Shown piece by piece: positions 8,766-61,567 of a DNA stretch of 64,000 nt. The first letter of the stretch is position 1. Each line of letters begins with the position of its first letter. A program made the position numbers and the translations under genes. Source of the stretch: Octopus vulgaris (lineage: Eukaryota); contig OX597821.1 in the NCBI GenBank assembly GCA_951406725.2, forward strand, positions 99,882,001-99,946,000. The letters are read 5' to 3'. The notes beneath the pieces were generated by a model. It had not been told where the DNA came from. It saw only the letters and a list, made by a program, of their open reading frames with translations, and did not search any database.

Positions 8766-10061
8766 CAATCTCATCGCCGACAAACTCGTAGATTTTACGA
8801 AAACAAATTCATTGATTTTGAAAATTTGTTTTGAAGGATATAATTTTCAGCGAACAAAATGGCAGCGTATCTGATGTCACAAATAAGGCTTTTGTCCACG
8901 ATTGCTTCATTTGGACGATCACTTTACTGAAGAAAACCCACTTCCTTTATTAATTATAAACATTTTAGTCAACAAATAATAAAAGGATTTTATATTTGTC
9001 CTTTATGGTTATTATACAAATCTTTAATTAATATTTGCAATGAAAATATTCCTGCTTCGAAATTAATCACTGAAAATCAAGGCAATTGTTATTTTACTTT
9101 GCAGCATATGAATTACAAGTAGCGAGCCTTTTATATTAGGATTTTAATAATTATATCCTCATTGCCTCCCACGAATAGGAAAAAAAAAAAAGAAAAAATG
9201 TGATGAGATAACTGAACGTAATTGAATCTTGGAAATAGGCACGCGTTTTCTAATACGTTCGTTTGCAGGAGATTTCATTTCCTAAATGAACCTACTTATC
9301 GTTGTTAATTTTAAAATCTGAAGATATATTTATATTTTATATTTTATGTAATGGAAAAGAACGGCTTTATGTTTGTCCTTTACATCAAAATAGGAATATT
9401 ATCTGATAGAGAATATAAACAAGTATACGAGTAATACAGGTCCGGATTAGTTTCGAACATTAAATCCTTCATGCTTTTAAGATTATCGACACTGGTTTCT
9501 TTTTGCAAGTGATCTTCATATATTCTCATTAATACATCCTCATTAGCTGTGAACAAAGATATATTTATTGAACAGCTCCAAGCTATAAGGAGATTGTTAA
9601 CTCAAATTCTAAGTAAATGATATTGCTGCCGTATATTACTTATGTTTATTAAATATTTTAATTACCCATTATGATACAGAATATTATCATTAAGACACCA
9701 CTTAGAACATTTATTGGTATCATATAAATGATATATTCATTTCGAGTTAAATTCATCGAATGATAAAAGAGACGCAATAACACGACAATACTTCCAATCT
9801 TATGTAAATATTTATCAACATATCGGCTGCTGTGATAAATACCAATACTTGTCTAAAATATTTCGCCTCAACATGTGAAAATTCACGCTACATATGTGCT
9901 GGTCAACACTGCTTTTGCTTCCTACATCTTAGCCACCGTGTTGTTGCTTTGACCTTTTATTGGATACAACTCTAAACTAGTGGTTCACAACCGGTGTTCA
10001 TTCGGGGTCCACGCAAACAGAATAGTAAACTGGAGATCTACAGTAGTATTTTAAGGGCCTG

Positions 10062-10291
10062 GCGGCGAGCTGGCAGAAAGGTTAGCACGCCGGACGAAAT
10101 ACGTAACCGTATTTCGTCTGCCGCTACGTTCTGAGTTCAAATTCCGCCGAGGTCGACTTTGCCTTTCATCCTTTCGGGGTCGATAAATTAAGTACCAGTT
10201 ACGCACTGGGGTCGATATAATCGACTTAATCCGTTTGTTTGTCCATGTTTGTCCTGTTTATGTTTAGCCTCTTGTGGGTAGTAAAGAAATA
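10062..10291 (+). mobile_element. SINE family 1 with tail A (gtgggtagtaaagaaat)
   Basis: 17-bp TSD agtattttaagggcctg at 10045-10061 and 10292-10308; gttctgagttcaaattcc B-box. Confidence 0.9.
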
Positions 10292-10377
10292 AGTATTTTA
10301 AGGGCCTGTGAAAAGCAATTTTGTTTTAGATATATTTATTGCTAGAAACAGCTAGCTTTCTTTCTCTAATGTTTTAA

Positions 10378-16307: not shown

Positions 16308-16475
16308 ATTTCTTTATTGGCCACGCAGGGCTGAAATCAGAAGGGACAAAATACAAAGTAGAACTTTTCTTTTTGGGAAGAAGAGAAGGAAAAAAAGGGT
16401 CGAATTCCGATCAAAAGGGATCGTGAAAAATAAAAAAAAGTGGAGACGATCGGAGCCTATCCTTCCTCTTTAGAG
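16308..16475 (-). mobile_element. 3' end fragment of a non-LTR element with tail-A terminus
   Basis: Minus strand tgtattttgtcccttctgatttcagccctgcgtggccaataaagaaat resembles the ends at 24858-24902 and 10248-10291. Confidence 0.6.
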
Positions 16476-23404: not shown

Positions 23405-23644
23405 TAAACATAAATTAGAATAAGAACAGTAATAAATGAGTGAAAAGGGAATTATATAGTGCGCCTGTTTATTTGGCAAAAAGAGGGAAAAAATAACAAC
23501 AATATCTGTTTCAACGCACGGTTTCACATCAAGAATCTTGCAGCACACATATATAAAAGGATATATTTACAGAAAACAACAAAAGACGAAGACAGGTGCA
23601 GGAATAACAAGCAGATGCATTAGTTTGACTGAATATATATAGAG

Positions 23645-23962
23645 AATACCAAATGAGTTCCCTATGGATACCGTATTTATTACAACGAGTGGCTTGTAAA
23701 CGAGTTGTAATAAATACGGTATCCATAGGGAATGAGTTTGGTATTTTATTTATTACATACGAATAAACGACCATATTTTATTAACCCAATAACTAAATTC
23801 TTCACGTTTAGTTGTAACTTATGAATGACAAAAGTAGTGCCGTCACCGTGACGTCGGGTCATCACCATGGATTGACCAATCAGAAGCAGCGCTCGCAGTA
23901 TCTGACATATGTTAGATACCAAAAATATCTCAAAGTGTTCTCACTCACATGTGTGTAATAAA
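23645..23962. mobile_element. Palindromic non-autonomous DNA element
   Basis: Perfect 29-bp inverted arms 23658-23686 and 23704-23732, extended by aataccaaa/tttggtatt; right boundary inferred. Confidence 0.55.
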
Positions 23963-23972
23963 GTTCCTGCTC

Positions 23973-24902
23973 GCGGAGTGCGAGCAGGAACTTGAAGAAA
24001 AGAAGAATACTGTAAATGAAAAAGAAAACATAGAAAAGGAAACAAAACAACAAGAGAAAGGAAATAATAAGTCAATGAAGGAAAAAGAAATAAAAGAAAA
24101 GAAAGAAATAGAACCAAAACAGAGTCAGGAAAAAAAAAGGAAAAAGAAACAATAGGAAAAAAACAAGAGAGGGATCAGAATCAAACGAAAAGAAAAGACG
24201 GCACACAAAAGGAAAAAGAAAAGGAACATAAAACACGAGAGAAAGAGAGAACAGAGAAAGAACCAAAAAGACAAGAGAAGGAAGGAGAAAGAAAAGAAGG
24301 CAAAAAGAGAGAAAGAGAGAAACAAAGAGAGGAGAACAAGGAAGAAATAAGCCCGAAAAGAAAAATGAAGGAAAACGTAGGACGGAAACAAGATTACTAC
24401 TACTACAAGTTAGTAACCTTCCATTTCTGCCCTGAAATGAAAGACTTGACATGTAATACGGAGGGACATATATGGGTCAACAGGATGACCGATCAGTGGC
24501 AGGAGACTGCTCTAATCCCCGAAGAAAGAGTCGCTGAGTTCCTCAGAGCTGCCGGAGAGAGTGTAATATTTTACACGAAGGTTCGAGTGAGAGAGCGGCC
24601 GCCTGAGGGCTCAGTGATGGACTTTAGAGAATTGAAAGCTATTATGGAATATGTATAGAATTGTGAGAAGAAAAAAAAAAAAAAAAAAAAGAGAAAAAAG
24701 AAAATTTTGTGAAATATATGTGACGAAAATGTAACCTCTCGATTCCGGGGATCGAGTGGGCATTTACATCTCATTGTAAATATTCTTTCATATGTCATTT
24801 TTTACTTTTATTTTTTCCTTTTCTTGTCATTCGCTTTCTTATTTTAAGTTCCCCGATTGTATTGTCCCATCTATGTTCGCCCCTAGTGGGTAATAAAGAA
24901 AT
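23973..24902 (+). mobile_element. 5'-truncated copy of an ORF1-only non-LTR element (ORF1 C-terminus plus 3' UTR)
   Basis: 23973-24495 nearly identical to 25763-26286; ORF stops at 24658; pyrimidine-rich UTR ends gtgggtaataaagaaat. Confidence 0.8.
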
Positions 24903-25045
24903 ACCGATAGGATGTTACTTCTATGCGTGTTGTTATCTGTGACTAGACGGTGAAATTTTTTCTGTGTAAATTGATTTGATATCGCGCGAGGCGTTTGCCT
25001 CCACGTGTGGAAACCTTCCGAAGAAGGTGAATTGACCCTCTAGTC

Positions 25046-26356
25046 ATGGCGACTTACGCGGGGGTCACCGGGAAAAATAACGATTCGTCGATAATCATAA
25101 AGGAGGTTTTCTTTGAGAAGGATAAACTCAAAGAATATGAAAAGCTCTTCAAAAGGGAGGGTGATAGCGTGAAGCTAATCCCCCCCGCGAAAGCAAAAGA
25201 GGACAAAGAAAGCAAGACAGTGACATACAGAACCCAAGACAAAAATACGAAGAAACTGGCAAGAGTGGAGATAGCCGAAATTGAAAAATGTCTGGGAGAC
25301 ATAATGGGGAAAACAACCTACGTGAGTAGAGGCAAGAAATTTGGTACGGTGGAGGTGAGATGTGCAACGGAAGAAATTGCAGCCTCACTGGCTACCACCG
25401 CACTAAGAGCCGAAAAATTCACAATGTGGCCCTCATACAAGGGAAGAAGAGGGGTCCGGGTTAAAATCCCGAATATACCCCCAGAAGTGAAAACAGAATG
25501 GCTGGCAACAGCTATTCTAGGAGCAGCAGAAGAGGAAGTGGAGGTGGAATCCTTTAAGGAGTCCAACGCGGTAAACTGGAGAGGATATGGGGTAGAACTG
25601 TGGTTGATGGCCACAAAAGAGGATATTGAAAGGTTCCCCTACAGAATTGAAATTGAAGATGAAAAAACCCTCAGTGTAATTGTAGAGGGAAGAAAACCAA
25701 ACTGTTACTTGTGTGGGACAAGGGGGAACATTAAAAAAGAGTGCCCGTTATACGAATTCGTAGCGGAGTGCGAGCAGGAACTTGAAGAAAAGAAGAATAC
25801 TGTAAATGAAAAAGAAAACATAGAAAAGGAAACAAAACAACAAGAGAAAGGAAATAATAAGTCAATGAAGGAAAAAGAAATAAAAGAAAAGAAAGAAATA
25901 GAACCAAAACAGAGTCAGGAAAAAAAAAAAGGAAAAAGAAACAACAGAAAAAAACAAGAGAGAGATCAGAATCAAACGAAAAGAAAAGACGGCACACAAA
26001 AGGAAAAAGAAAAGGAACATAAAACACGAGAGAAAGAGAGAACAGACAAAGAACCAAAAAGACAAGAGAAGGAAGGAGAAAGAAAAGAAGGCAAAAAGAG
26101 AGAAAGAGAGAAACAAAGAGAGGAGAACAAGGAAGAAATAAGCCCGAAAAGAAAAATGAAGGAAAACGTAGGACGGAAACAAGATTACTACTACTACAAG
26201 TTAGTAACCTTCCATTTCTGCCCTGAAATGAAAGACTTGACATGTAATACGGAGGGACATATATGGGTCGACAGGAATACCGATCACTGTGGTCTCGTAG
26301 CCACAGTGAGCCCAATGGCGCCCAGAGCCTTGCTCCCGACACTCCATGGACCATAA
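25046..26356 (+). CDS. Retrotransposon ORF1 (gag-like nucleic-acid-binding protein), 3' end disrupted
   Basis: 436-aa ORF with RRM-like region, VIVEGRKPNCYLCGTRGNIKKEC zinc knuckle (His replaced by Asn) and K/E-rich region; last ~23 aa are read-through into an unrelated insertion. Confidence 0.8.
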   Translation: MATYAGVTGKNNDSSIIIKEVFFEKDKLKEYEKLFKREGDSVKLIPPAKAKEDKESKTVTYRTQDKNTKKLARVEIAEIEKCLGDIMGKTTYVSRGKKFGTVEVRCATEEIAASLATTALRAEKFTMWPSYKGRRGVRVKIPNIPPEVKTEWLATAILGAAEEEVEVESFKESNAVNWRGYGVELWLMATKEDIERFPYRIEIEDEKTLSVIVEGRKPNCYLCGTRGNIKKECPLYEFVAECEQELEEKKNTVNEKENIEKETKQQEKGNNKSMKEKEIKEKKEIEPKQSQEKKKGKRNNRKKQERDQNQTKRKDGTQKEKEKEHKTREKERTDKEPKRQEKEGERKEGKKREREKQREENKEEISPKRKMKENVGRKQDYYYYKLVTFHFCPEMKDLTCNTEGHIWVDRNTDHCGLVATVSPMAPRALLPTLHGP

Positions 26357-26504
26357 GCAAGGCGTGTGTAAAATTTGAATGAAATTGGTTGTGTAGTTCT
26401 CAAGTTATAGGGATTCACACAGACAGACAGATAAACATTCTTAGTTTCATATATATCGATATACTAGCATTATGACCCGGTCGTTGCCGGGTCATAGTGC
26501 TAGT
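26287..26504 (-). mobile_element. Helitron 5' fragment joined to a Helitron 3' hairpin-CTAG terminus
   Basis: Minus strand: actagcactatgacccggcaacgaccgggtcataatgctagt, then atatcgatatatatgaaact...(TCTG)n. Confidence 0.6.
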
Positions 26505-26649
26505 CCATGTATATATGAGTATATATATGTGTTCATATTACATGTACATATATATATACATATATATATACATTTACACATAAAATACAAAATACAATGT
26601 TATATCTTGATATCGCTAGTGATAACAATACTCAAAATATATAACAGAC

Positions 26650-26830
26650 TGTAATTGTAGGCCCGTCTCTTGCAATTTCGACCAATTGTATTTTGTCCTC
26701 CCTCTGGTGTAGAAGTGTGGCTACAATCCAGCCTACCTCTACTTCTGCGGGGATATCTTTCATAGTCGCACCAACACACATTTCGATGGTGCTTTCCTCC
26801 AGGTGTTCAAATCTTTTTTTTCTCTCTACA
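26650..26830 (-). pseudogene. Old fragment of a related ORF1
   Basis: MKDIPAEVEVGWIVATLL...EDKIQLVEI resembles IPNIPPEVKTEWLATAIL...EEEVEVES of the 25046 ORF. Confidence 0.55.
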
Positions 26831-26961
26831 TTATATGCTTTATAGACAATTGTATATATGCAAATTGTAAATATGTATGTAAATATATGCAAATTGCATA
26901 TATGTATGTAAATATATGCAAATTGTATATAGGTATGTAAATATATGCAAATTGTATATAG

Positions 26962-45388: not shown

Positions 45389-46762
<1,374 letters not shown>

Positions 46763-48845: not shown

Positions 48846-50060
48846 TTAATGAACAAATCCATTACCATTCTGTCTAAAAGTCTCAAATTTCGTTCCGATG
48901 TAAAGTGCTACTAATGTACTTATCGAAAGTGAATAAGATAAGGTGAAGAGCCGGACTTGAAGTTTTATGAATCTATCTGGCAGAAACGGTATGGGGCAAA
49001 CCAAGGACATTGTAGAATTTAAGGTCTCTCTGTCTTCAGGGATCATATTACAGTGAATGAGTGGGATTAAGTGGTGTGGGAGCATTATTGCCTTTCATCT
49101 TCCCATTCTTCTAGTGTCTTGTAATGATGTGTTGGTACTAATGGTTGTAGATGTGTGAGACGGTCCATAACCTTTTTGTTTCTGGGATTCAGGATGAGTT
49201 GATTGTTTTCCTGCTATCCTCGTAATTCCAGCCATTGGCGCAGAAGATAAAACAGTTTCTAGGACCTGCTACTGCTGTTGTTGTTGCTCTTTTCTCTGCT
49301 TTACCTGTTCTTCCGGGAAGAAAGTTCTCTTACTATCACACATATAACATGTAGGCTTTCTGCCTTGTACCACTAGTCTCATGTCCTTCGACGGAGCACA
49401 GTTCAGGAATAAGTTTAGTTTTCGGAGGTTAATGAATACAAATTGAGATCCTATCCGGTAGTAACATGCCATTCCTGGTTATCTTGCCTCTGACCACCTG
49501 CTCATACTATAGGACAAAGATGACGACGAGCCAAAGTTCACTGCCAGCACCTTTCATACTGAGCCATGTAATGCGGCATCTGATATTATGGCGTCAGTGC
49601 GTGAGTAGGTGTATGATTGCTGTCTCATCTTGCCTCATCGCCCGTCCACTCTTGTGCCACATGTGTAGTAACCCAGCTTTCTACTTTACACTGCTTGTCC
49701 CATCACCTTTCCTTTTTCGATCACGACTGGGAACAGTTCCAGGATAGTATAGTGGCTTTCGCGAGGTTCTAAAGACGTGTATGTCCATTGAAACAGCGCC
49801 TAGATACATGTCTTTTTCGTGAACTCAGCACCAACTACTCACTCAAAATGCGACGCAAGCTGATGACGTTGCCAAGAAACAGCTGTTATCAACATCCTTT
49901 GACTCCGTCTCATTTGCTTCATCGCCCTTCGAACTCTGACCCAAGTGAATGTTCTGTTTGCTTCTTTCGTTCTCATTTCTGACAAACACACATACAGGTC
50001 CGCACGCTTTACCTCGATAAATTGAAACAACAGTTTTCCACACGTCAATCGGAACTGCTT
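48846..50060 (-). pseudogene. Old degenerate ORF1-type element related to the 25046 ORF
   Basis: RLVVQGRKPTCYMC matches SVIVEGRKPNCYLC; acgtgtggaaa motif near 50040 also occurs in the 5' UTR at ~25003; boundaries approximate. Confidence 0.55.
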
Positions 50061-52075: not shown

Positions 52076-52393
52076 AAAACTCTTTTTTTATTTTGGCACA
52101 AGGACGACAAATTTACGCAAATGTAAAAATTACTGCTGCAGTAATTGGTGCATCCGGCACAACACACAAAAAGCTACCAACGAGGCTGAAGGATATTGGA
52201 GCGATCACTGTCGACCTGCAGAAAAATACCATTCTGTATTTTGCCGGAAACCCAAGCAAGATTCTCGAGATTTATTATTATCAAACTTCATCAAAATATT
52301 CCTCTTAATTAAATAGTAATAATAATCATCGACATGTTTCTGTATTAACTGTTCTTTTCTTCTTCGGTTTAATATTTCATAAGATGTACTCAC

Positions 52394-52546
52394 CCAGCGC
52401 AATGCGGTCCGACGTCGCTTCTCGGTTGATCCAGAATGATACCCAGGAAAGGACTACTAACAGAATACACGGGATATAAACCTGGATGAGGAAGAATCCC
52501 GTGTGTCTCCGTAAGAAAAACTTCACAGCCAGAATGGTGTGAGGAG
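52394..52546 (-). CDS. Internal coding exon of a Cys-loop ligand-gated ion channel, GABA-A-type subunit (GRD/CG8916-like): pre-TM1, TM1 and TM1-TM2 linker
   Basis: PHTILAVKFFLRRHTGFFLIQVYIPCILLVVLSWVSFWINREATSDRIALG; acceptor tttttgctcttattacag, donor G|gtgagt; 153 bp, phase 1/1, matching the conserved TM1 exon of GABA-A alpha/gamma-type genes. Confidence 0.93.
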
Positions 52547-52574
52547 CTGTAATAAGAGCAAAAACAACAATTTC

Positions 52575-52639
<65 letters not shown>

Positions 52640-52707
52640 TAATAGTAATAATGATGATGATAATGCTGTTGCTGCTGCTACTGATGATGATGATAATAAT
52701 AATAATG

Positions 52708-52775
<68 letters not shown>

Positions 52776-52780
<5 letters not shown>

Positions 52781-53772
52781 CAAACAAGAAATCATACCAC
52801 CTAATAAACATGAAGAAGAAGAAGATGAAGAAACAACAAAAGCTATAAAAAAAATGAAATCCAAACTAAAAATAGAACAGCAACGAACCATGATAAAACG
52901 ATGGCAAGAAAAGCCCCTTCATGGTAAATACTGGACTAAACTAAACGCAAAAGAAATAGACAAAGAAAAATCCCAGCAATGGTTGAGAAGCTCAGGACTC
53001 AAAGCAGAAACAGAGGGATTTTTAATTGCAGCACAAGACCAAAGCCTCCCCACCAGAAATTACCAAAAACATGTAATGAAAAGAAATATTACAAGTAACT
53101 GCAGAATATGTGGAGATGGACCAGAAACAATAAATCATATTATCTCTAGCTGCCCAGTCCTGGCTAAGAAGGAATATATTCACAGACATGACAGAGTTGG
53201 AACTTACATACATTGGAAGCTATGCCAACATTATGGAATAACAACAGAAAAAAGATGGTATAGGCACACACCAGAAAAGGTCACAGAAAACGAGAAAGCA
53301 ACCATACTCTGGGATATGCCGATACACACAGATAGAGAAATTAAGGCCAACAGACCAGATATAGTTGTCAGAGACCATGAAGAAAAAAAATGCTTTCTAA
53401 TTGATGTATCAGTACCGGCAGATGACAACGTGTCTCTAAAAGAAATGGAGAAACTCTCAAAATACAAAGACCTGGAAATAGAGGTAACTAGAATGTGGAA
53501 TCTGAAAACAGAAACAATTCCTATCATAGTAGGTGCATTAGGCATGATAAAAAAATATTCAGACAAATACATAACAAAAACACCAGGACTTACAAACACA
53601 TATAACATACAGAAAATTGCACTACTAGGCACTGCACACATCCTACGCAGAACACTTTCCATACAATAACCATCAGAGCATCACAACAAATCACAGCACA
53701 TACCCAAGGCACACAGAGCTGCGCTCGGTAGTGAAGTGAAAGCACGCTATAAAAATAAAAATAAAACTACTG
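52776..53772 (+). mobile_element. R4/Dong-like RLE non-LTR retrotransposon, 5'-truncated, subfamily A
   Basis: Uninterrupted zinc-finger plus RLE reading frame to 53669; nearly identical to 45763-46762; (AAT)n on both sides. Confidence 0.92.
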
Positions 53773-60344: not shown

Positions 60345-61567
60345 TTGGGTCATCCCATAAATAGTGGGCTTTTTCAATTGCATGAACTAAAAGTCTGAGG
60401 AGTAGGGGATAAACAAGTAATTTTACCTGTACTTATTCTTAGTGCAAATTTTGAAGGATGCAGTTCGATTTTAACAGTTACTTTTTCAAAGCTACAATGG
60501 AAGTGACAAAGGAGAATATCCGGCATATTTTGCTTTATGAATTCAATAAAGGCAATAACGCAACAGAAAGTGCGGTGAATATTAATGCAATATATGGGGA
60601 TCGGACAATAAGTGTAAGCCAGTATCAAAGGTGGTTCCAGAAACTACAGCCTAGAAGACGAACTTCGTCCTGGAAGATCTGTAGAGGACGTCCTGCAAAC
60701 CATAGTGCAACAAAATCCCACCGTAACTGTTGAGGAACTAGCAGGGAAAGCTTGGATTTAGTCATTCAACCATTCATCGACACCTGCGTGCCATCGGAAA
60801 AGTCAGAAAATTAGGTCAATGGGTTTCTCATAAACTTTCCGAGTTTAATCCCGAGTAGAGAGTGAATGTGTGCTCTTCTTTGCATTCACATCTCACGAAT
60901 GAACCTTTTTTGGACCGAATAGAGACTGGTGACGAGAACTAGGTTCTCTATAAAAATGTCAAGCGCCGAAGACAGCGGATAGCGAAAGGAGAAACACTGG
61001 TACCTCAGGCTAAAGAAGGGCTTCACTGACGTAAGGTGTTGTTACCTGCTTGGTGGAATACGAAAGGTTTAGTCCACTTTGAACTTTAAAACCCAAACCA
61101 AACGAGAACAAAGATCTACAGCGAGCAGTTTGAGCAGCTTAAGTCAGCGCAAGCAGAAAAACGACCATCTTTGGTGTCGAGACGAAAGGTGCTTTTCCGT
61201 CAGGATAATACTCAGACATACAGCAAGGATGACTTTCCAAAGGCTGGAACAGTTTGAATGGGAAACGATGTCCCACCCACGATATTCGCCAGACATTGCC
61301 CCATCTGATTATCATTTATTTCGCAGTCTTCAAAATCATTTGGACGGGAAAAATATGAATTCTTTAGACGAGGTCAGAAGAATACTGGAGGAGTACTTTT
61401 CGTCACGGACAAGTGAATTTTGGAAAAGGAGCCTTGTAAGTCTACTAGATAGATGGAAGAGCATTGTAGAAAATGAAGGAGAGTATATTTTAGATTAAAA
61501 AAGAACTTTGTTTATCTTAATTTTGAAAAATAAAAGAAAATAACCGCATTATTTAGAAGATGACCAA
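60345..61567 (+). mobile_element. Full-length, inactive mariner (D,D34D) transposon
   Basis: Imperfect TIRs ttgggtcatcccataaatag / cattatttagaagatgaccaa; transposase 60497-61498 with frameshifts and stops: MEVTKENIRHILLYEF, WVSHKL, TGDE, HPRYSPDIAPSDYHLF. Confidence 0.92.

Follow-up and report, generated by a model that had tools for sequence, protein, structure and literature searches.

Two adjacent copies of one element in the window

The window analyzed here is a 64,000-nt stretch of the Octopus vulgaris genome (contig OX597821.1, positions 99,882,001 to 99,946,000), and its relevant features are collected in Table 1. The pieces 23973–24903 and 24921–26289 are adjacent copies of one unit, which we call element A. 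A head-to-tail unit of about 1.8 kb had been described at this place in an earlier note, and its coordinates proved correct: the segments 23973–24498 and 25763–26289 are 98.1% identical over 528 nt, with a repeat period of 1790. The ORF1 stop of copy 1 is at 24656–24658 and is followed by a 3' UTR of 245 nt (24659–24903) up to the tail end, in agreement with the stop at 24658 and the UTR of about 245 bp reported before. The 45-nt tail comprises a short stem-loop and AATAAA, without poly(A). It does not abut the 5' end of the next copy at 24903, as had been thought, since a 17-nt spacer intervenes. This spacer is no part of element A and is read as a target-site duplication (TSD) of the landing site termed 2a.

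Table 1. Position and strand of the features of the window
Feature	Position	Strand	Remarks
SINE with the shared tail	10062..10291	+	17-nt TSD at 10045–10061 and 10292–10308
Tail-only fragment, GTGGCCAATAAA class	16308..16355	-	Like LINE-III, unlike element A
12-nt inverted copy of 23980–23991	23963..23974	-	At the left break of copy 1
Element A, copy 1	23973..24903	+	Lacks its 5' part (cut near unit position 860); frameshifts in A-runs
45-nt 3' tail	24859..24903	+	Common to LINE-I, LINE-II, families B and C, and the SINE
17-nt spacer between copies 1 and 2	24904..24920	+	Sequence also found 3' of the tail at T01, T03, T07, and T13
Element A, copy 2	24921..26289	+	5' UTR, ATG at 25046, ORF1 open to codon 415
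Helitron-like repeat, 5' end, with short repeat unit	26290..26459	-	Copy 2 is broken off there
Empty target Helitron-1, internally deleted	26464..26850	-	Captured ORF1 scrap inside
Degenerate ORF1 relative with knuckle start	49329..49454	-	E 3e-5 to 6e-5

The ORF1 of copy 2, which runs to the 3' break at 26289, contains a predicted pair of RRMs, a knuckle (25703–25744) and a K/E-rich linker. The zinc knuckle noted earlier is reported as zf-CCHC by Pfam in an intact copy, but in copy 2 of the window its His is replaced by Asn. Pfam gave no domain match for the window's own ORF1 pieces, because copy 1 is cut and frameshifted and copy 2 is 3'-cut and carries this replacement. The inverted 12 nt at the left of copy 1 may be a scar of repair or of twin priming. 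The high-copy inverted-repeat element at 23637–23962 ends at this same break.

The closest relative of the window copy elsewhere is the head-to-tail array, or train, T01 (1.2–1.3% divergence), and the window copy is what remains of a train at site 2a after a cut at either end. Its neighbor on one side is the short inverted-repeat element; on the other side lies the 5' end of a Helitron, followed by an empty Helitron-1. The former Helitron piece is 84–94% identical to the 5' end of Helitron-1 and 85% to a piece downstream of train T07. The empty Helitron-1 retains landing site 1a (26788–26813), a site resembling 1b (26641–26657) and its hairpin and CTAG end (26464–26493). What had been taken for an older relative of the element at 26650 is in fact an ORF1 scrap within this empty copy (88–94% DNA identity), while the relative placed near 49269 was confirmed as a degenerate, knuckle-bearing one. 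Elsewhere in the window, 45649–46659 and 52515–53669 (plus strand) are near-identical 3' pieces of another LINE with zf-RVT. We take the minus-strand frame 52377–52865 to resemble a ligand-gated ion channel exon, and the plus-strand frame 61073–61498 the C-terminus of a mariner transposase.

Element A is a multicopy ORF1-only family

Multiple TSD-flanked copies had been anticipated and were found. A 27-mer specific to the 3' end of element A has 118 exact matches (control, 0), and copies outside the usual landing sites are 5'-cut and, where both ends are visible, bear TSDs of 14–18 nt. With the 5' half of A as query, 245 candidates yielded 41 matches (40 of them scored); with the 3' part, 1195 candidates yielded 40. 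All 40 scored 3' matches pass unbroken from ORF1 into the tail, so that the absence of ORF2 observed in the window cannot be put down to a local deletion. The distance from the ORF1 stop to the tail end is 231–246 nt in 101 of 105 A sequences, and the ORF1 estimated at about 467 aa measures 467–469 aa from its ATG in intact copies elsewhere. Element A is therefore a true multicopy ORF1-only family with a unit of 1.79 kb.

The earlier comparison with HAL1 holds in that A encodes ORF1 alone. It does not hold for the protein, which is of the RRM plus CCHC type: in five ORF1s, Pfam found zf-CCHC and no Transposase_22, the mark of an L1-type ORF1 (types distinguished as in excerpts of PMC5203782). 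The HAL1 label is thus an analogy only. Matches of the A ORF1 in the protein atlas are CCHC/ZCCHC3-RBD clusters, and its predicted structure has two RRM-like lobes similar to RRM folds (Z 7–9), in a weak model with a mean pLDDT of 51. For the C-terminal 95 aa there was no usable atlas match, and the predicted model has a pLDDT of 30–60. In the ORF1 tree, an O. bimaculoides protein (UniRef100_A0A0L8FKL1; support 99/99) clusters with A and the related family B, apart from the ORF1s of LINEs. ORF1s of this type stand in the databases as uncharacterized host proteins, the nearest of them under Octopus vulgaris.

The selection on ORF1 suspected earlier was assessed among 81 full A copies with those variants that occur at a minimum of three loci. 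In codons 1–240, the RRM/knuckle region, 49 such variants are synonymous and 15 nonsynonymous (pN/pS 0.08, against 0.44 for private variants). The ratio for shared variants is 0.19 in the linker, and constraint is weak in the C-terminal domain (0.49 shared vs. 0.47 private). These figures support purifying selection on the A ORF1. As assembled, only four of 103 copies have an ORF1 open over at least 460 aa. Because 144 of the 218 frameshifts lie inside homopolymer runs of five or more, 70 of them in one C7 run that short-read contigs cross ungapped, the majority are likely to be assembly errors.

Partner LINEs and the shared tail

An RT-encoding LINE with the same tail, as the earlier note had supposed, was identified. 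LINE-I is 5.2 kb long and has an ORF2 of 1132 aa with EN, RT, and zf-RVT. Its last 45 nt score 41/45 against those of A, while the 45 nt before them score 16, and DNA identity between the two is restricted to the final 47 nt. The A ORF1 is only 25–29% identical to the ORF1s of two LINEs and of the ORF1-only family C; together, these observations reject A as a recent deletion of LINE-I. The other ORF1-only family, B, has 60% ORF1 identity to A, compared with 29% for C. By its domains, LINE-I classifies as a Tx1-type LINE: ORF2 combines an APE endonuclease with RT and zf-RVT, ORF1 has RRM and CCHC, and a named database match carries ZCCHC3-RBD, EN, and RT. In having a 3' end in common with a LINE, TSDs, and 5' truncation, A behaves as ORF1-present non-autonomous LINEs in general do, and it likely uses the EN and RT of a Tx1-type LINE through the common 45-nt tail.

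LINE-I is one of at least three complete LINE families with related tails, the others including LINE-II (72% ORF2 identity to LINE-I) and LINE-III (59%), and further fragments (62–74%) carry such tails as well. The tail is best regarded as the mark of a lineage, and not of one pair of LINE and passenger. Its stem-loop is a candidate structure, since none of its four pairs showed compensatory change. The fragment at 16308 does resemble the tail, as had been stated (score 29), but it has the GTGGCCAATAAA form and belongs to a LINE family other than that of A.

LINE-III itself emerged from a search with a divergent ORF2 that was aimed at the partner of the SINE. Its young copies (L247–L270; e.g., G000:C4:93.80–93.83 Mb, C47, and C50) have an ORF2 of 1145 aa, and their tail is followed by (ATT)n at 23 of 24 loci. 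LINE-III also builds tandem arrays of 5.87 kb.

Landing sites lie within Helitrons

The main host of these insertions is a 1-kb repeat that begins with TC, ends in a hairpin and CTAG, and lies between an A and a T nucleotide. By these end features, we take it to be a non-autonomous Helitron (Helitron-1). It holds a scrap homologous to the ORF1s described above (best E 6e-7; 0 control matches), with no DNA match to any present element, and the landing sites are inside this scrap. Site 1a is represented by 166 exact empty copies, and site 1b, used by an older subfamily, is about 290 nt downstream. For site 2a, the joined empty form had no exact match; of the second host repeat, one copy (at the flank of train T03) has a Pif1 2B fragment and a CTAG end.

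Among 57 A loci, 43 have a Helitron-1 flank (one of these, L200, being a diverged relative of A), five lie in the second repeat, five are trains in which the script detected no flank, three are off-target, and one is the window. The loci were picked by exact patterns and best scores and are weighted to the first 100 matches listed, so that young copies are over-represented. Similarly, a Helitron site or a train spacer comes next after 28 of 30 LINE-I tails. Both figures exceed the threshold of 20% of flanks of one type by which target preference of Tx1 LINEs is recognized in excerpts of PMC4494074. At five loci (L199, L207, L208, L215, and L216), one full-length A stands alone with a Helitron half on either side. 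One off-target A fragment (L114; G000:C22:17.77 Mb) is apparently located in the ORF1 of another Tx1-like relative, before the knuckle. Site-directed, polarized stacking within Helitrons is the main feature of the system, and the earlier reading had overlooked it.

Trains probably grow mainly at their 5' end

In the trains, A is found in the same direction as LINE-I, LINE-II, and families B and C, with up to 22 A copies. Examples enclosed by both host halves are U07 (22 A and a LINE), T20 (eight A alone), and U13 (A-A-LINE-A-A-A-LINE). U07 is interstitial, as it lies 100.1 Mb into a contig of 128.6 Mb. Trains of diverged copies occur on many contigs, which disposes of the tandem as an assembly artifact. 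Two trains, T06 (C10:43.60 Mb) and T10 (C15:65.73 Mb), include a LINE-I that an internal deletion has reduced to 981 nt and that lacks any long ORF. Other tandem arrays, with a period of 1.68–1.71 kb and probably of family C, were seen at G000:C5:100952980–100980423 and C2:158832418–158839163.

Of 76 pairs of neighboring 12-nt spacers, 46 are identical, compared with 5.1% of 3960 cross-train pairs, and the same is true when the neighbors belong to different families (nine of 17, vs. 3.1%). In the 13 trains where it is visible, the 3'-most spacer is the plain target or nearly so. We therefore regard the spacers between units as TSDs that have been passed across families. The nearest relative of 29 of 57 copies is found at another locus and not next to them; train neighbors are up to 7.6% apart, whereas partners at other loci can differ by 0.17%. 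In trains of mixed clades, the young clade, with 1.4 private changes per copy against 4.6, is 5' in eight of eight cases. Given the inheritance of spacers and the 5' position of young copies, it is likely that copies arrive one by one, by sequential insertion at the 5' junction, although a LINE sits 5' of A in T01 and T07.

A different origin would be satellite-like growth by unequal crossing-over or rolling-circle duplication, followed by spread as Helitron cargo. The hosts are indeed Helitrons, and some neighbors are near-identical: U07 copies 5–9 and 13, and those of T20, are 0–0.06% apart, which fits unequal crossing-over better than retrotransposition. Moreover, T06 and T10, as well as T01 and T07, have sub-trains and flanks in common and cannot be counted as independent loci. 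As a general account, this origin is very improbable. It does not explain the divergence of neighbors relative to partners at other loci, the mixture of unrelated families with inherited spacers, or the consistent order of ages, and the filled hosts include both empty-site variants plus private ones. Satellite-like growth is thus contradicted as the main cause but probably accounts for some of the length of the longest runs, to which some local duplication appears to have added.

That whole trains were made in one event, either by template jumping of the RT from the 5' end of one RNA to the next tail or by copying of a multi-unit read-through RNA, is scarcely credible. Every junction has a target-like spacer, a LINE is absent from 11 of 24 complete trains, and copies of one train differ in age, although the LINE is mostly 3'-most, the common tails would permit such jumping, and relics of earlier spacers persist in A leaders. 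Stepwise 5' insertion remains the reading that we follow below.

The SINE stands apart from the trains

The SINE does share the tail, as first described: it scores 33/45 against that of A, compared with a mean of 13.3 and a maximum of 23 in 2000 shuffles. The earlier note had joined an autonomous LINE, the ORF1-only element, and the SINE into a three-part system united by this tail. In the strict form of this proposal, a single LINE would mobilize both A and the SINE within a closed system, and besides a tail similarity far beyond shuffles, similar TSD lengths speak for it. The SINE, however, is present in none of the 24 complete trains. It does not use the target site of LINE-I, as the sampled copies are at unrelated sites or in the SINE's own head, their 3' flank being either its position 47–48 or unrelated DNA that often starts with GGTA. 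Since related tails occur in at least three complete LINE families, the partner of the SINE may be a LINE other than that of A. The strict form is therefore unlikely; LINE and SINE both carry the tail, and the three-part reading holds only loosely.

Many SINE copies (L077–L096 and L137–L166) appear inserted into another SINE copy, with the flank running from position 47–48, and other SINE TSDs often begin with GGTA or TATA. At L158, L163, and L165, the tail alone (about 24–30 nt) is inserted, with apparent TSDs. The head of the SINE had no Rfam match at E 1.

Mechanism and choice of site

The explanation that we favor, with considerable confidence, is that the ORF1-only element A borrows the EN and RT of a Tx1-type LINE through the tail and has been stacked, one copy at a time, at the 5' side of earlier insertions in non-autonomous Helitrons. 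The ORF2 of the LINE would bind the 45-nt tail in trans. The nick would require Helitron sequence on the upstream side of the cut; only the 5'-most junction still has it, and this requirement would account for the polarity of the trains. A 5' leader that still holds an old spacer could anneal to the target overhang and give rise to chimeric spacers, and local duplication may have further enlarged the long near-identical runs.

No poly(A) was found in any insertion examined, and AATAAA is at the very end of the tail. It is an even question whether the transcript passes AATAAA into the spacer, so that the first spacer bases pair with the nicked strand; such pairing would account both for the absent poly(A) and for the subfamily-specific sites. 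The start points of off-target insertions match the usual flank of their own subfamily in 11 of 12 cases (p 5e-5 against an expectation of one in three), with site classes assigned by tail type post hoc, when the data had already been seen. For this reason, and because EN differs by 5–8% between site classes, a role of RNA pairing in directing insertion is suggestive only.

Site choice by the endonuclease and upstream DNA, with no RNA pairing, stands only just short of an even chance. The EN domains of the LINEs at sites 1b and 2b are those that differ by 5–8% from the ones at 1a, the polarity of the trains itself demands upstream DNA, and excerpts of PMC4494074 ascribe Tx1 specificity chiefly to EN. 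Against EN as the only determinant, the LINE of T03, whose EN is 99% identical to that of site-1a LINEs, is found at site 2a and carries the tail variant seen in the neighboring A copies; A subfamilies sort by site even though A has no EN; and the off-target starts fit the flank of their own subfamily.

If pairing does operate, each subfamily would carry its own address in the read-through bases 3' of the common tail, one enzyme would serve different sites, and a stray insertion could found a heritable new site. The trains would then be dated strata, largely of ORF1-only lineages older than the split of two Octopus species. We put this fuller picture forward tentatively, as one with rather less than an even chance of being right.

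One copy, L214 (G000:C2:150.14 Mb), stands out among the 105 sequences in that all of its 41 private changes are A to G. Comparison with its nearest relative gives 74 differences, of which 56 are A to G; 53 of the 56 fall inside 480 nt, and a G is the 5' neighbor in two of the 56 sites, compared with 31% in the background. We take this pattern to be consistent with the signature of A-to-I editing copied into DNA, and L214 is likely a case of RNA editing that became fixed in the genome.

Relation to known systems

The comparisons in this section draw on excerpts of the papers cited. HAL1 and Ag-Sponge are ORF1-present non-autonomous LINEs of the L1 and CR1 clades (PMC5786205, PMC5753468). Like A, they have ORF1 only, retain the 3' end of a LINE, and need the RT of a partner, but A differs from them in its Tx1-type ORF1 with RRM and CCHC, its several old families, its fixed sites, and its long trains. 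In Drosophila, the pol-less HeT-A forms same-direction, head-to-tail arrays with its autonomous partners TART and TAHRE (PMC5537684), as A does with its own. HeT-A arrays, however, are telomeric and thought to be nick-independent, neither of which applies to A, whose arrays are interstitial, occupy dozens of loci, lack poly(A), and have a TSD spacer between any two units.

Tx1 LINEs that favor a site in a DNA transposon, as in the octopus, are also known: Tx1L inserts in Tx1D, the crocodilian Tx1-Mar, together with SINEU, in Mariner-N4_AMi, and Tx1-9_AMi in Harbinger (PMC4494074). SINEU, like A, is a passenger on the site of a LINE, and its tandem insertions enclose a TSD. The octopus system is distinguished from Tx1-Mar by its target, a Helitron cut within a captured ORF1 scrap (the excerpted text of PMC4494074 mentions no Helitron as a target), and its passengers are distinguished from SINEU by an encoded ORF1 under selection and by age-ordered trains of up to 22 copies. 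For R2Ol, insertion is more efficient when the bases that follow the element on its 3' side match the target (PMC6530143); this was shown at one rDNA site, whereas the pairing proposed for the octopus would, by analogy, vary between subfamilies.

The repeat annotation of O. vulgaris lists 13 recently active L1-Tx1 families, described, in the excerpted text, without this structure (PMC13282606), and the words Tx1 and Helitron do not occur in PMC9115989. Octopus ORF1-only Tx1 elements or Helitron-targeted trains were not described in the literature consulted, and the families may be held in Repbase, Dfam, or the Zenodo library of PMC13282606. The parts of the system are known from HAL1, HeT-A, and Tx1-Mar; no description of them in combination turned up in that literature.

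These findings extend ORF1-only parasites to a lineage of Tx1 type, and the octopus trains are an interstitial, many-locus counterpart of the HeT-A arrays. For annotation, they concern proteins currently filed as belonging to the host. The edited L214 copy would tie RNA editing in the octopus to heritable change. Dozens of independent, ordered trains offer tests of why ORF1 is retained, of how specificity shifts, and of pairing by the RNA 3' end in TPRT.
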